Source: Coleofasciculus chthonoplastes F2-STO-03
Lineage (GTDB): Bacteria > Cyanobacteriota > Cyanobacteriia > Cyanobacteriales > Coleofasciculaceae
Length of the DNA stretch: 31,267 nucleotides
Direction: 5' to 3'
NCBI GenBank assembly: GCA_040222015.1
Contig: JAVJWO010000208.1
Coordinates: 1 to 31,267, forward strand
Made by a program: the position numbers. Every line of letters begins with the position of its first letter. Within the stretch, counting starts at the first letter, position 1. Of the stretch, positions 9,001 through 15,000 are shown piece after piece.

Positions 9001-12000
9001 GGACGAACTGTGCCGTCCGAATCGCCTCATCAATGGCAGCGTATTGAGCGGGTTTAGCTTTTACCTTAAACTCAAAAACTATCATTGTTTTTGCTCAAGA
9101 TTATAATGTTCACTATAGAATAACTAGACCAATTGCGCCAGCCACAACTAAAGTTGTTAGGTTGAACCTTGCTCGGTGAAACCTTGAGCGAAGTCGAAAG
9201 GTTTCATCCCCCGACTAAAGTACGGAGGTTTTCACCATCGCGTTCTATAACTACCCATCGCCAACAGTTAGCTCAAACCTATCAACGCCTCAAATCTGAA
9301 TTTCCCCAGCTTCACGAATCCCCTGACAATCGCTTTCGGATCACCGACTGGACGTTTGATAATCGCAATCTCAGCGTGGAGCAACTCGAACACCTTAACG
9401 CTCTTTGTATCTCAATGGATTGGGGATTTACCTATAGTTCGGTGCAATGTCACATCAAACCCCGATCTCAGGATAAAGCGACTGGATTAATCCAAGTGTT
9501 ACGTGACCATTTTCCCCAATATCAACCGGAACAAGTTCTGACAGTGGGTGATAGCCCTAACGATGCCAGTTTATTTAACCCCCAGTTATTTCCCCTATCC
9601 GTAGGCGTGGCTAATGTTTTGGATTATAGGGATGAACTGGACTATAAACCCGCTTATGTTACCGATGCTACAGAAGGTGAGGGATTTTGTGAGTTAGTAG
9701 AGTACCTGCATCAGGTAGGAAGGTAATTGCTCCCTGACTCTTGACAAATGACTCTTGACAAATGACAAATGACAAATGACAAATGACAAATGACAAGGTG
9801 TAGGAGCAAGATTTATGGTGCTGGTTGTCCAAAAATACGGTGGAACCTCGGTGGGATCAGTTGAGCGGATTCAAACTGTTGCTCAACGTCTCTTAAAAAC
9901 AGTTCAAGCGGGTAACTCTTTAGTCGTCGTCGTGTCAGCGATGGGTAAAACCACCGATGGCTTAGTCAAACTGGCTCACGAAATTTCCGCCAATCCCAGC
10001 CGTCGGGAAATGGATATGTTACTCTCCACTGGCGAACAAGTCTCCATCGCCCTACTCGCGATGGCGTTGCAGGAAATAGGACAACCTGCAATTTCTCTGA
10101 CTGGCGCACAAGTCGGTATTGTCACGGAAGCCCAATATAGCCGCGCCCGAATTTTTAGTATTCACACCGAACGCATTTCTCGGCATATCAACGAGGGTAA
10201 CGTGGTAGTTGTAGCAGGGTTTCAAGGAATCAGTAGTATGACTGACTTAGAGATTACCACTTTGGGACGCGGCGGATCAGATACCTCAGCCGTGGCGTTA
10301 GCGGCATCATTAGGGGCAGATCGGTGTGAGATTTACACGGATGTTCCGGGGATTTTAACCGCCGATCCGCGCTTAGTCTCCGATGCTCAACTCATGGACG
10401 AGATTACCTGCGATGAGATGCTGGAATTAGCAAGCTTAGGGGCGAAGGTGCTGCATCCGCGTGCGGTGGAAATTGCTCGCAATTACGGGATGCCCTTGGT
10501 TGTATTATCCAGTTGGACGGATGATCCGGGGACGAAGGTGATTTCTCCTACGCCACAACCCCGTTCGTTAGATGATTTAGAAATAGCTCGATCAGTGGAT
10601 GCGGTAGAATTTGATACCGATCAGGCAAAAGTGGCAATGCTGCGGGTTCCCGATCATCCCGGTGTCGCCGCCCAATTATTTGGAGAGATTGCGGGTCAAG
10701 ATTTGGATGTGGATTTAATTATCCAGTCGATTCACGAGGGGAATACGAATGATATTGCCTTTAGTGTAAGTAAGGGTATTCTCAAACGGGCTGAAGCCGT
10801 GGCAGAAGCGATCGCGCCCGCTTTCCGTAGCCCCACTAATCCCAGTGATGATGAGGCGGAAGTCTTAGTGGAATCAAATATCGCCAAAATCGCGATCGCG
10901 GGGGCGGGGATGATTGGACATCCGGGTATTGCGGCGCAAATGTTCACCACTTTGGCAAATACGGGAATCAATATTCAGATGATTTCCACCTCAGAGGTGA
11001 AAGTAAGCTGTGTGATTGATGCGGCTGATTGTAATCGTGCGATCGCGGTTTTGTGTGACCAGTTTAAGATTAAGAGTTCCCCTGCCCGTTTACCGATTTC
11101 TGATAATGTAGAGACGCGCCATGGCGCGTCTCTACATTCAAACCCCGTCCGAGGGGTTGCCCTTGACCAAAATCAAGCCCGTTTAGCCATTCGTTATGTT
11201 CCTGATCGTCCAGGTATGGCAGCTCGCATATTTAGTATCTTAGCCGAGCAAACCATTAGCGTGGATATGATTATTCAATCTCAGCGCTGTCGAGTAATTG
11301 ATGGAATTCCCACACGCGATATTGCCTTCACCGTCGCCCAAGCTGAGGCAGAAAATGCCCAGAAAATTCTCCAAGAGGCAGCACCTATTTTAGGATACGG
11401 CAAGGTTCTCCTGGATGCCGATATTGCTAAAGTCAGTATTGTGGGTGCAGGAATGATTGGACAACCCGGTGTAGCCGCGCGAATGTTTGCCGCCCTTTCT
11501 CAACACAAAATCAACATTCAAATGATTACCACGTCGGAAATAAAGATTAGTTGTGTAGTGAATAAAGAACAAGGGGTGACAGCATTACAAGCCATTCACC
11601 AGGCATTTGGTTTAGCCGGAAATCAGCAAGTTGAAGTTCCCACATAGGAGTGTCCATTAATTCTTACTAATGATTCTCTTAGTACATTGATATCGTAGGC
11701 TTGGAGTTGTCCAAGTTTCCTCAAAACCAGGGTTCTCTCAACTGTCGTAACGATCGCTTTTACCAGGAGGCAAGTCGCGGATTTTTTTAATTAGCGTTTG
11801 TTCAAAAGAATTGAGGATAACTGTATTATTCATACTTTGAGTATAGTTTGTATGGCTTATTTTAGCATCTCAGACAAAAAGCGAGTTACTCAAGGCTTTT
11901 GATCTAAACGAATCGCCCGCTCCAACGCCGTTTTTTCTCTTGACCGACGAACATAAGGCTCTAATTCTTTGACATCTAAACCGCTTAAAATACTCAAATC

Positions 12001-15000
12001 CTCCACATTCATCCCTCTCATTAGCATTTCCACACACCATGTCTGTCGCGCTTGCTCAATTGAGGGAGATGGCGTTTCCAACTCAGAGGTAAAGTTACGC
12101 CATGCAACTCTTAATTCTGCCACAGACATCCGTTCCAAGGCTTCATTAACAAACAAGGGTGAGCGATCATCTTTACGACTTTTGAGCCATTGGTTTAAGG
12201 GATTGCGGGTGTAAGAACCATAGCGCTTACCCATAATCCACTGATTTACAGGGACTTGGCGCACGTTACCTTGAGTCACTTGCAATAAGTGTCTGTGAGT
12301 GTCACTAATTTGGTGCGATCGCTCTAAGGCAATAATTTCTTCTATCCGCAACCCCGCACCAAAGAGGACATAGGCGATAGCATAATCCCGTAATCCGCTT
12401 TTTTTGGCTTGTTGCAAAATGTCATGAACTAACGATGCGGGTAAATCGGCTACAGTCTCAGAGGAGATCACCGGAGAAGGCGCATTTGGTGAAGAATTGG
12501 TTACAGGCGGGCGCACTGTCTCCCCTGTGTCGCCGCTTCCCGGTTCTTCCTCCGCCTCTTCCCGTCTCTGTAGCTCTGTGTCTGCAAAAGCTCCGTGTAA
12601 GATGAGTTCGAGCAAACTTTGCAAAAACTCCTCCTGACTTTGCCACAGCTGGTGGAACTCGCTAGTTAGTTCAATCACCAGATACCCGAATAACATCACA
12701 TTAACCAAGCGGGCTAATTTTCCCGCCGACAATCGCAACACTAAGCGATCGCGTTGAATCACGGTGGTAAGATAATCAGCAAAGTCCAGGTTGGCTTGAG
12801 TAACCCCTTCTCCTAACGCCTGACGATGCTCAACCGTATATTTTCCTGACTCCCCAACCACAGAGCGCAGTAATTCGGGCATCTGTTTGAGAACCTGAAG
12901 GCGATCGCGTCCATAGTTGATCAGCGCCTGCTCAAATGTCGTTGTCTGATCGACTTGGGCTCTGAGTGATTCACCCAGACGGGTAAACACGCCAGAGTCT
13001 TCGATCACGGCTAAAAGCAATCCTTGTTTGTTACCAAAGTGACGGAACAGTGTGACTTCATTAACCTGGGCTAATTCAGCAATCTGACGTGTGGTTGTCT
13101 CAGTAACCCCCTGAACGGTAAACAACTCAAGCGCTGCTTGAATTAAACGCGCTCGTGTTGTAGAACTGGTACGAGACATAGTTTAACAATGTAAGTGATA
13201 CTTGCATTTTGATGGAGTAGTGGTTAAGCTGATGGTATAAGTGTAAGTAAAACTTGCACCTCAATTCCTACTGTAACGATTCTCAATAGATGACTAATTC
13301 CTCAATCTCAGCGCCTCCTCAAAGTCGCGCTAATCTACCCTTCCATTGGCCCAGTCTGCTGTTTTTTGGCACAATTCACGCCTTGGCACTGCTGGCGCCC
13401 TGGTTTTTTTCATGGTCAGCCTTGGGAGTAATGATACTTCTCCACTGGCTCTTTGGCAGCATTGGCATTTGTTTAGCCTATCATCGGCTTTTGACCCATC
13501 GGAGTCTTCAAGTGCCTAAGTGGTTAGAATATATCCTGACCACCATCGGTGCTGTAGCTCTCCAAGGAGGACCAATCTTTTGGGTAGCAGGACACCGTCA
13601 GCACCATGCTCACCCTGATGATGCAAACAAAGACCCTTACTCAGCACGAAATGGGTTTTGGTGGAGTCACATGCTTTGGCTGTTCTATCATAAGCCCGAA
13701 TTTTTTGATTACGACGTATATCAAAAATACGCTCCTGATATCGCTAGAGATCCTTATTATCGCTGGTTAGATCGCTATTTCTTATTGTTACAACTTCCGC
13801 TGGGTCTATTGCTTTACGTCGTCGGGGGATGGCAATTTGTATTCTGGGGTGTCTTTGTCCGAGCTGTACTACTGTGGCACAGCACCTGGTTAATTAATTC
13901 TGCCACTCACCTGCGCGGTTATCAGACTTATGAAGTTAATGATGGGTCTCGCAATCTCTGGTGGGCAGCTATCTTAACCTACGGAGAAGGTTGGCATAAC
14001 AATCACCACGCTCATCCCAATGTTGCTCCGGCTGGACGTAAATGGTGGGAAATCGATATGACGTGGTGGGCAATTCAAATCCTGCAAGGAGTAGGTTTAG
14101 CAAAAAAAGTCGTCCTCCCGCCTAAAAAGACAGCTTAGTCAAGCTCTGGTGGGAATTTAAAAGTATGACGGTATGTGACGCAACGTTAGTGTAGAGACGT
14201 TGCATGCAACGTCTCTACAACTATCAAAAAGGTTTTCACTCCTAACCCGGTTTCTATGAATACTTGACCGACGGGTTGTTTTGTATAGAAATATTAAAGT
14301 TTATTTATTAGGATTGCGTGTTGCTTTCAAACATGGAAAAATATACACATTGTTTTTGACTTGATCACCGAGATAGCTATCACTATTAATCGGTCTGAAT
14401 TTGAGTCAATCAGCCCGACCCGGTTCATTCAAGTCTGAGAACCTAAAATAATAGATCCACGGGTTCCCACCAAAATTAACAACCTAACCCTATAGATTTC
14501 CACCCATTCAGGTAACAAATGTAATGACAACAACATAAACCCTGATGTCGCAAGTCTATACCAAAGATTTTGAAATTCAATGTCCTCCCCAACAACGCAG
14601 TTGGAGAAAAATTGCACAAGAAATTGGCAATCTTCCTTTACCTGGTGTTCCGATTCGCTTGATTTTAACCAAGGTTGACGGAGATACGCTCACCTTTGAA
14701 TCCAGCTTTATCGAGACGGATAGAGAGCCGGTTTGGTCATCATTACTTGATATTAATCTGCGTCAACGGGTTTCTGCCCAACCCTTTGTCGCCGTGAGTA
14801 TTATTCCGACAGGCGTTAGAGCCGAAATTGGCGGTTTTGCTGGAGATGCGACTCCGAGTACGAATCTTTTAGCGGCGGCTTGTGATTATCTGGTGACTAA
14901 TCCCAATGCTGTAACCGCATCGGATATCTATTTGGCTCAGGATAATGTGCTTTACCTGGAGGGGAATCTGATTTGTCAGTTACTACTAGGTAATATTGGC

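Follow-up and report, generated by a model that had tools for sequence, protein, structure and literature searches.

A TetR-type regulator carrying a recombinase-derived domain is predicted to control a DesC2-clade desaturase gene from paired operators in cyanobacteria

Results

A fusion protein beside a divergent desaturase gene

A cyanobacterial TetR-type regulator fused to a tyrosine-recombinase catalytic fold, apparently inactive across its family, is encoded divergently from a delta-9 desaturase gene of the DesC2 clade, and the gap between the two holds paired operators that appear to be built into the desaturase promoter. The protein is more probably than any alternative we weighed a local repressor of the DesT/MadR kind, which would be released by saturated acyl chains and would carry an accessory, domesticated domain. 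Architecture, operators, promoter geometry and co-occurrence can all be read from comparison of related loci.

In the window (the whole 31,267-nucleotide stretch of Coleofasciculus chthonoplastes F2-STO-03 analysed here), the 429-aa product joins a TetR repressor through a linker to a Xer-like catalytic domain, and its gene is separated by 110 bp from that of a 282-aa neighbour with a FA_desaturase Pfam match (Table 1). The initial annotation had reported such a fusion beside a divergent desaturase, which was confirmed by the ORFs, the Pfam matches and a DesC2-clade delta-9 desaturase divergent to the regulator in 147 of 149 loci. Repeating its contig scan gave identical figures (376 stretches with the full fusion, 80 best loci). 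Because the counted loci are kin, such counts overstate independence. In an even sample, 30 orthologues were found in the 105 genomes of families f1 to f18, taken as the order (one non-orthologue dropped), and across the class 235 of the 401 genomes sampled carried one. Atlas searches returned no specific family for the fusion protein, and a literature search that covered subscription papers thinly returned no description of this protein and no paper on alr4992 (the inferred tag of the gene divergent to all4991).

Table 1. Features of the regulator-desaturase locus (positions in the window)
Feature	Position	Strand	Basis
TetR/tyrosine-recombinase fusion gene, recombinase part predicted dead (P0001)	11890..13179	-	ORF, 429 aa
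Tyrosine-recombinase catalytic-fold domain without catalytic set, residues 241-429	11893..12459	-	XerA fold match; profile match; catalytic columns
Residues 307-337, a mostly invariant basic/aromatic stretch; 9 residues inserted relative to XerA	12169..12261	-	Invariant residues; gap in XerA
Low-complexity variable linker, residues 201-240	12460..12579	-	Column conservation 0.42; low pLDDT
TetR ligand-binding/dimerisation domain, residues 61-200	12580..12999	-	Fold matches to many TetR proteins (Z 15-17)
TetR helix-turn-helix, residues 12-58	13006..13146	-	PF00440 (TetR_N), 51.7 bits, cut-off 24
Operator 1, 17-bp palindrome	13190..13206	.	Right half is desaturase -35 box; 10 bp from regulator start codon
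Predicted -35 box TTGCAT, desaturase promoter	13202..13207	+	TTGCAn in 146/147 loci
Predicted -10 box TAAGCT	13225..13230	+	17 bp after -35 box; inferred start site near 13237
Operator 2, 17-bp palindrome	13242..13258	.	Over or just after predicted desaturase start site
DesC2-clade delta-9 acyl-lipid desaturase gene (P0002)	13290..14138	+	ORF, 282 aa

Operators and desaturase promoter geometry

The palindrome TG(C/T)AAGT-NNN-ACTT(A/G)CA described earlier for the gap was re-found at 13190 and 13242, and re-examination of 81 loci returned a pair in 79 (with a third copy used for pairing in L044 and L047); at least two operators occur in 132 of the 134 loci that carry the recombinase-derived domain. 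Beyond what had been annotated, the sequences place the predicted desaturase -35 box within operator 1 and operator 2 at the predicted start site. The operator pattern itself dictates a TTGCAn -35 box, so the -10 spacing is independent evidence for the promoter: a TAnnnT box lies 16 to 18 bp from the -35 box in 145 of 147 loci, at exactly 17 bp in 125, and is an extended TG box in 110. Since operator 2 covers the predicted start site, the two operators are 46 to 52 bp apart in 132 of 140 pairs. Bridging of the operators in a fixed phase is disfavoured, because spacings of every length between 46 and 54 bp occur and promoter geometry accounts for them. In this genome a second -10-like hexamer stands just upstream of operator 2, but it is not conserved. 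The contigs of four of the 14 listed RNA runs (X1, X2, X4 and X5, from related strains and possibly with DNA) show no joint between the operators.

The same geometry bears on two other readings of the palindromes. In one, the protein would activate the desaturase from operator 1, whose sequence overlaps the -35 box, and operator 2 would only damp this activation. That would suit the fixed position of operator 1 relative to the -10 box and the finding that it is the copy retained where a single operator is left, as in 6 of the 11 TetR-only loci in family f30. We consider it very unlikely, given that the promoter already comes close to consensus (TTGCAn-17-TAnnnT, in many loci with extended TG), that operator 1 is also constrained by its -35 role, that operator 2 sits on the predicted start site and that most TetR proteins are repressors (PMC4092027). 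More unlikely again is that the palindromes serve autoregulation only, with the desaturase a conserved bystander. In 125 of 140 loci no more than 30 bp separate operator 1 from the regulator start, whereas the desaturase start is anywhere from 10 to 313 bp away, and the cyanobacterial TetR protein PfsR bound just its own promoter of 11 tested (PMC4092027). Against this, the -35 and -10 boxes built into the operator pair are on the desaturase strand, the operators stay with the desaturase where gaps are long (47–137 bp from it and 254–513 bp from the regulator in the four longest), and the regulator and the DesC2-type gene are usually missing together. Counting against the favoured repressor model, no conserved promoter for the regulator itself was found, TAnnnT standing 17 to 18 bp from operator 2 in just 24 of the 140 loci.

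Operator specificity and co-occurrence with the regulator

Exact copies of the palindrome occur only at the two operators in the 7.72 Mb of this genome (0.16 expected), and the three further sites with one mismatch are all unpaired. The two operators score 26.5 and 22.5 in a PWM scan of the genome, with the next site at 13.3. A wider regulon was found neither here nor in five other genomes, which have single stray sites only, and such sites are also seen without the regulator (2 of 5 regulator-less genomes). The operator was absent at up to one mismatch upstream of eight DesC2-type genes without an adjacent regulator, and at up to two mismatches upstream of 30 DesC1-type genes, while 16 of 20 genomes without the regulator also lack a DesC2-type gene. 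In these distributions operator and regulator co-occur. The earlier proposal of a dedicated, widespread TetR regulator of the desaturase, with its own operator, is strengthened by this co-occurrence, by promoter geometry and by the lack of other strong sites.

The TetR half

Residues 2–200 align to TetR structures (Z 15–17), and the recognition segment VNEVTLFR is near-invariant, including in TetR-only orthologues. dN/dS was 0.06 in the helix-turn-helix, 0.11 in the ligand/dimer domain and 0.62 in the linker. The two-domain structure model, built from a 60-row alignment, reached pLDDT 88 and pTM 0.52 with residues 218–237 disordered (a single sequence gave pLDDT 41).

The label of a FadR-like, acyl-CoA-binding protein found no support. 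FadR rows tie with unrelated TetR proteins, being interspersed with DarR, PfmR and QacR among the TetR-domain matches, and the FadR and FabR models score far under their cut-offs (NF053878, 23.9 against 200; NF008402, 27.4 against 151). In fold comparison, 1vi0 (Z 17.0) was level with 3bhq (17.4) and MexL (16.9), and DesT, at 14.9, tied with dozens of others and shows no specific sequence or fold kinship with the regulator. Judged from the model, the fold comparison gives fatty-acid sensors no precedence over other TetR proteins. A desaturation gene as the apparent target, as expected of acyl-sensing TetR proteins, is indicated by the divergent desaturase itself (147/149 loci).

A recombinase-derived domain without its catalytic set

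Residues 251–399 match Phage_integrase (PF00589; 39.9 bits, cut-off 27.1), and residues 242–428 share the catalytic-domain fold of XerA/XerC/XerD, with Z 20.9 to XerA 5hxy (rmsd 3.5, 175 aligned) and a profile match to XerA 4a8e at E 2.9e-10. Unlike Xer recombinases (catalytic set as in PMC8138268), the fusion is without the Arg-Lys-His-Arg set and without the core-binding domain, in whose place stand TetR and the disordered linker; the Tyr position is retained, one residue nearer the preceding Gly, and the 9-residue basic insertion and the TetR fusion set the cyanobacterial protein apart from them. Across 118 family sequences, the first Arg was present in 11, His was replaced by Glu in 83, and the second Arg and the Tyr were kept in 42 and 112, respectively. 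By comparison, the 78 lower-scoring matches, nearly all ordinary recombinases, keep their catalytic residues (Arg 67, His 59, Arg 65, His/Trp 63). The initial annotation did not include the Trp that 70 of the 118 sequences have at the His/Trp position, nor the shortened catalytic-Lys hairpin, which is without Lys. The first Arg of this genome looks like a one-base reversion from Leu. The annotation's description of the recombinase as dead is supported at family level by this loss in the catalytic columns; although catalysis appears to have been lost across the family, the domain is under purifying selection (dN/dS 0.13).

Retained DNA-cleaving or topoisomerase-like activity through the conserved Tyr, for example promoter inversion or nicking between the operators, is the least likely of the readings we weighed. 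The frequent Tyr and Trp would allow it, as would the co-occurrence of Arg, Arg, Trp and Tyr in three loci (L036, L037 and L088), and IntDOT, which has Ser in place of the first Arg, is active. However, the first His is replaced in all 118 sequences, the Lys hairpin is cut, the core-binding domain is absent, Tyr is Phe, Leu or Met in 14 of 62 diverse representatives, the first Arg occurs only as scattered CGN codons beside relatives with CTN Leu, and the -10 box has a single orientation in 145 of 147 loci.

The segment at residues 307–337 contains the invariant residues R307, N312, G317, Y320, G321, N326 and P327 and has a median net charge of +6, against +2 in ordinary recombinases, whereas the DNA-contact helix has turned acidic (median -2 against +3). 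TetR was the only partner of the domain within the best 150 profile hits. Complex prediction with two copies of the domain scored 0.00, which has no bearing either way.

The domain is absent from two TetR-only groups, family f30 and genus g59, the latter nesting among the fusions in a TetR tree that is unrooted and has its outgroups on long branches. Every one of the 14 TetR-only loci examined has retained operator 1 together with a divergent desaturase gene. Because these orthologues keep the operator, the recombinase domain would not be needed for operator recognition and appears to be accessory, a point that the earlier description had missed.

The desaturase

His boxes 2 and 3 match clade 1 as given in PMC2593844, in common with DesC2 of Nostoc sp. 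SO-36 and DesF (PMC2593844, PMC4390868); box 1 differs at three positions in this genome and is exact in eight regulator-linked loci. None of the three clade-2 His boxes listed in PMC2593844 match. A FastTree tree on which no characterised reference sequence stands splits the enzyme from DesC1 with support 100. By whole-genome tblastn it is the sole canonical delta-9 desaturase here, so that, unlike DesC2, it has no DesC1 partner, and delta-12 and omega-3 type genes are present. In Synechococcus PCC 7002, low O2 induces an operon that includes DesF, described as a putative sn-2 delta-9 desaturase (PMC3468840); DesF is essential for microoxic growth (PMC4500134). The previous naming of the enzyme as an sn-2 desaturase calls for qualification: its placement agrees with the DesC2 clade, while sn-2 specificity as its sole role is doubtful, because the genome is without DesC1 and the putative sn-2 enzyme DesF is a low-oxygen isoform.

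Discussion

We infer that the regulator binds the two operators and represses the desaturase: TetR dimers on operator 1, at the -35 box, and on operator 2, at the predicted start site, would shut its promoter. Because operator 1 directly precedes the regulator start codon, the regulator probably represses itself as well. Saturated chains accumulating in low oxygen or cold would release the repressor, its TetR pocket perhaps reading acyl-chain saturation via acyl-ACP or free fatty acid, a step we propose more tentatively than binding and repression. Cyanobacteria use acyl-ACP and are not known to use long-chain acyl-CoA instead. The precedents are DesT of Pseudomonas aeruginosa and MadR of mycobacteria, likewise TetR-family repressors of a desaturase gene, which sense saturated acyl-CoA and for which release by saturated acyl chains was demonstrated rather than, as here, presumed (PMC8872791). 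Neither is described with a recombinase domain in the available text of that source, and the target here is an acyl-lipid desaturase. Such an enzyme works in the membrane, so its product would reach a soluble sensor only via lipid turnover, which argues against acyl sensing.

The same repressor and operators might instead answer to oxygen, redox or another metabolite, as a ChlR-independent low-oxygen desaturase switch with the C-terminal domain as a possible sensor, which we regard as unlikely but the strongest of the rivals. DesF is low-O2-induced (PMC3468840) and essential in microoxic growth (PMC4500134), and the five regulator-free DesC2-type genes (of eight) whose neighbours were scanned adjoin petC, hemF, hemJ and two bchE-like radical SAM genes. 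However, neither domain holds a Cys or a metal-binding set that is invariant (16 of the 118 sequences have Arg at C382), TetR-only orthologues retain the circuit, and the DesF clade rests on its paper's label because the DesF sequence is off our tree. DesF is itself under ChlR, not a TetR protein (PMC3468840, PMC4500134). PfsR (Sll1392) of Synechocystis PCC 6803, a cyanobacterial TetR that binds its own promoter, has an iron phenotype and no desaturase link in the available text of PMC4092027; at 203 aa and TetR only, it is set aside by length alone as the counterpart of the 429-aa fusion.

In the acyl-responsive repressor that we favour, the C-terminal domain is a domesticated, non-catalytic recombinase fold and most likely tunes the response through its invariant basic/aromatic patch. 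Docking of an acidic partner such as acyl-ACP or the anionic membrane is our leading, if tentative, suggestion for its role; extra DNA contact or cooperativity between operators is a somewhat weaker possibility, pure oligomerisation is unlikely, and another role more unlikely still. TnsF of Tn6022-like Tn7 transposons, likewise a prokaryotic protein, retains an inactivated tyrosine-recombinase domain in a non-catalytic role, but serves its transposon as DNA target selector (PMC10293859). In the present case the domain forms part of a host transcription factor and has lost the basic DNA-contact helix.

Control of cyanobacterial desaturases is usually ascribed to temperature signalling or mRNA stability, and PMC3468840 argues against a cold-response transcription factor. 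The regulator is a candidate dedicated desaturase repressor, with orthologues in 235 of the 401 genomes sampled across the class, and its fusion form is a clean case of a recombinase fold retained for a non-catalytic job in a host regulator. Because operators, -35 and -10 boxes are specified to the base, binding and ligand assays can start immediately, with the TetR-only orthologues as natural built-in controls. If the repressor model is true, then wherever DesC1 is missing, as it is here, the protein would control the step from which all membrane unsaturation starts. A bolder version, to which we give a low probability, is that an ancient cyanobacterial fusion was remodelled into a sensor whose basic/aromatic patch docks acyl-ACP or membrane, so that saturation of the photosynthetic membrane directly controls a desaturase suited to low oxygen; a mobile-element enzyme fold would then have become the signal-input module of a host transcription factor.

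Architecture and distribution of the regulator–desaturase pair

The 429-aa regulator has Pfam matches above cut-off to TetR_N (residues 12–58) and Phage_integrase (residues 251–399), and is separated by 110 bp from a 282-aa protein matching FA_desaturase. Its nearest named relatives are from Coleofasciculus MAGs (86–93% identity). The structure model, based on 60 aligned sequences (pLDDT 88, pTM 0.52), predicts two well-folded domains joined by a disordered linker, and resembles XerA (Z 20.9, rmsd 3.5 over 175 aligned residues) as well as numerous TetR proteins (Z 15–17). Over eight close sequences, dN/dS was 0.13 in the recombinase-fold domain (C-domain) and 0.11 in the ligand domain, as against 0.62 in the linker.

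Positions of features in the window
Feature	Position	Strand	Basis
TnpB gene, IS605-type	7820-9085		Cas12f1-like TNB + OrfB domains
Regulator, 429 aa	11890-13179	-	ORF call + Pfam
Operator 1, 17-bp palindrome	starts 13190		sequence match
Predicted -35 box TTGCAT	13202-13207	+	right half of operator 1
Predicted -10 box TAAGCT	13225-13230	+	17 bp after TTGCAT
Operator 2, 17-bp palindrome	starts 13242		sequence match
Desaturase (P0002), 282 aa	13290-14138	+	ORF call + Pfam
Perfect 30-bp palindrome	14190-14219		3' of desaturase
Lower-GC block	14545-23256		GC 0.40
Divergent delta-9-like desaturase	27385-28311		31-36% to P0002

Even sampling across the class (401 genomes) recovered the TetR part in 235 and the C-domain in 208. 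We pooled 149 loci, the window included, after removing duplicates, a non-orthologue (L122) and a locus cut before its start (L080); because these loci are related by kinship, counts over them are not independent. The desaturase was divergent to the regulator in 147, the exceptions being one same-strand downstream desaturase and one locus with no desaturase match in the stretch fetched. At least two operators (≤2 mismatches) were found in 132 of 134 loci with C-domain DNA, and in one of the other two (L128) the pair lies outside the scanned range. The widespread twin-operator arrangement proposed in the initial annotation held, and the regulator is real, widespread and apparently undescribed. 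One long-branch fused regulator (L160, genome G361) has a same-strand downstream desaturase, with no operator found upstream. Genome G497 encodes both fused and TetR-only regulators (L145 and L150), and a separate divergent desaturase with operators accompanies each. Three fusion genes (L153, L154, L155) have frames broken near the domain border, through either assembly errors or recent decay.

Elsewhere in the window, the lower-GC block (0.35 within 19136–23256; flank 0.47) encodes DUF3326, a threonine-aldolase-like PLP enzyme, two methyltransferases, GNAT, LL-DAP aminotransferase and a sulfotransferase-like gene. Its two TauD dioxygenases resemble trimethyllysine/butyrobetaine dioxygenase in matches below cut-off, and its dioxygenase–aldolase–dioxygenase set is reminiscent of the eukaryotic carnitine pathway; the block is possibly an osmolyte or small-molecule cluster. 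The 30-bp palindrome looks like a dispersed repeat, because very many RNA-run contigs map there.

Operators and the predicted desaturase promoter

The two operators are the only exact copies of the palindrome in the 7.72-Mb genome (0.16 expected), as initially reported. The right half of operator 1 is TTGCAn. Of 147 loci, 145 have TAnnnT 16–18 bp beyond it, 125 of them with a 17-bp spacer, and 110 have an extended TG; at no other spacer length between 8 and 27 bp does TAnnnT occur in more than 24 loci. Start-to-start distance between operators is 46–52 bp in 132 of 140 pairs. Operator 2 would thus fall on or just past the expected desaturase start site, so that promoter geometry accounts for the operator spacing, which has no helical phasing. 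In 125 of 140 loci, no more than 30 bp separate operator 1 from the regulator start. Where the gap is longest (four loci; starts extrapolated from tblastn), the operators are 47–137 bp from the desaturase and 254–513 bp from the regulator. No conserved promoter was found for the regulator itself (TAnnnT at 17–18 bp from operator 2 in 24 of 140 loci). In family f30, the TetR-only loci (L140–L150) share further conserved elements between operator 1 and the start site: GGA-N3-CG in the spacer upstream of the -10 box, and TGTCAAG downstream of that box. These may mark a second-factor site or the regulator's own promoter.

Co-occurrence and TetR-only orthologues

Sixteen of 20 regulator-less genomes had DesC1-type genes only and four a DesC2-type gene. 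Upstream of eight regulator-free DesC2-type genes (these four and four extra paralogues), no operator with ≤1 mismatch occurred within 700 bp, and one 2-mismatch operator-like site was seen; 30 DesC1-type genes had no operator upstream at ≤2 mismatches. In a weight-matrix scan of this genome the operators scored 26.5 and 22.5 and the next site 13.3. That site (G000:C80:4024), which precedes a nifH-like gene by 374 bp, is probably due to chance. In each of five other genomes, the operator pair was accompanied by no more than a single stray site, and stray sites were present in two of five regulator-less genomes; the regulon looks local.

The TetR part occurs in 22 of 23 f30 genomes and the C-domain in one; genus g59 likewise has the TetR part alone. 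The divergent desaturase and operator 1 were kept at each of the 14 TetR-only loci examined, so the helix-turn-helix would read the operator and the C-domain would be accessory. The second operator was kept in eight and lost in six, all f30, and this single-clade decay hints faintly at a C-domain role in two-site binding. In a quick TetR tree with an unresolved root, g59 is nested among fusions and f30 forms a long branch; the g59 state is best read as C-domain loss. The TetR-only form could be ancestral, because Thermostichales is an early-branching order and a database record so labelled carries the short form.

Loss of the catalytic set in the C-domain

Comparison with XerA and across 118 sequences bore out the family-wide loss of the catalytic set that had been proposed. 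The first Arg is kept in 11 (Ser 77, Leu 16), the Lys hairpin is shortened, the His is replaced (Glu in 83) and the second Arg is kept in 42 (Gln 69); Trp occupies the His/Trp position in 70. The Tyr is kept in 112, and among diverse representatives Phe, Leu or Met replaces it in 14 of 62. We considered whether the domain might nevertheless be active: Arg, Arg, Trp and Tyr occur together in three loci, and IntDOT is active despite Ser at the first Arg position, which counts against a dead domain. The first Arg of this genome's copy would most simply be a reversion, because its codon is CGG where the nearest relatives have CTN Leu. Sequence comparison shows catalytic loss combined with conservation of the domain. 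When 1.84 billion representatives were searched with a profile, the family was sharply separated from ordinary recombinases; 78 lower-scoring matches mostly retained the catalytic set, and, among the matches listed, every family member long enough to reveal its N-terminus carried the TetR part. The helix that we take, from Xer proteins, to contact DNA has a median charge of -2 versus +3 in ordinary recombinases, and a largely invariant, basic segment with a 9-residue insertion has +6 versus +2.

Proposed mechanism

Architecture, operator, promoter geometry and regulator–operator co-occurrence are all evident at the sequence level. The regulator is likely to repress the desaturase and probably itself too. 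Saturated acyl chains would release it, as in the analogues DesT and MadR (PMC8872791), a step to which we give even chances. The modelled fold lends this no support, since FadR and DesT tie with unrelated TetR proteins; FadR/FabR models also fell far below cut-off, and this leaves the earlier label 'FadR-like' unsupported. More speculatively, the basic patch of the C-domain might dock acyl-ACP or membrane, or add DNA contacts. TetR repressors of desaturases are already known, as is an inactivated tyrosine-recombinase domain, in TnsF (PMC10293859). The literature passages covered gave no account of a TetR–recombinase fusion, its operator or any DesC2 regulator, and those of two surveys (PMC8138268, PMC8987985) do not mention the fusion.

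Desaturase identity and role

His boxes 2 and 3 of the desaturase match clade 1 (sn-2, DesC2) and none of the clade-2 boxes of PMC2593844, and a tree without a characterised reference sequence splits its clade from DesC1 with support of 100. These placements agree with the initial DesC2 label, but an exclusive sn-2 role is doubtful: whole-genome tblastn found no DesC1 in this genome (99.99% complete), which has delta-12 and omega-3 type desaturase genes. Typical DesC1 is absent from all nine genomes of genus g1, four of which hold a degenerate DesC1-like gene (47–48%; L198 and L199 on a long branch). P0002 or the divergent delta-9-like desaturase must therefore, as gene content suggests, also serve sn-1. 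In sister genomes (L209, L210) the latter type immediately follows the DesC2-type gene, and therefore ~13 kb is inserted between them here. Synechococcus PCC 7002 has DesF, described as a putative sn-2 delta-9 desaturase; low O2 induces it (PMC3468840) and microoxic growth requires it (PMC4500134). Around the five of eight regulator-free DesC2-type genes whose surroundings were scanned, the neighbours are petC, hemF, hemJ and two genes resembling bchE. The regulated gene may therefore encode a desaturase for conditions of low oxygen or high demand.
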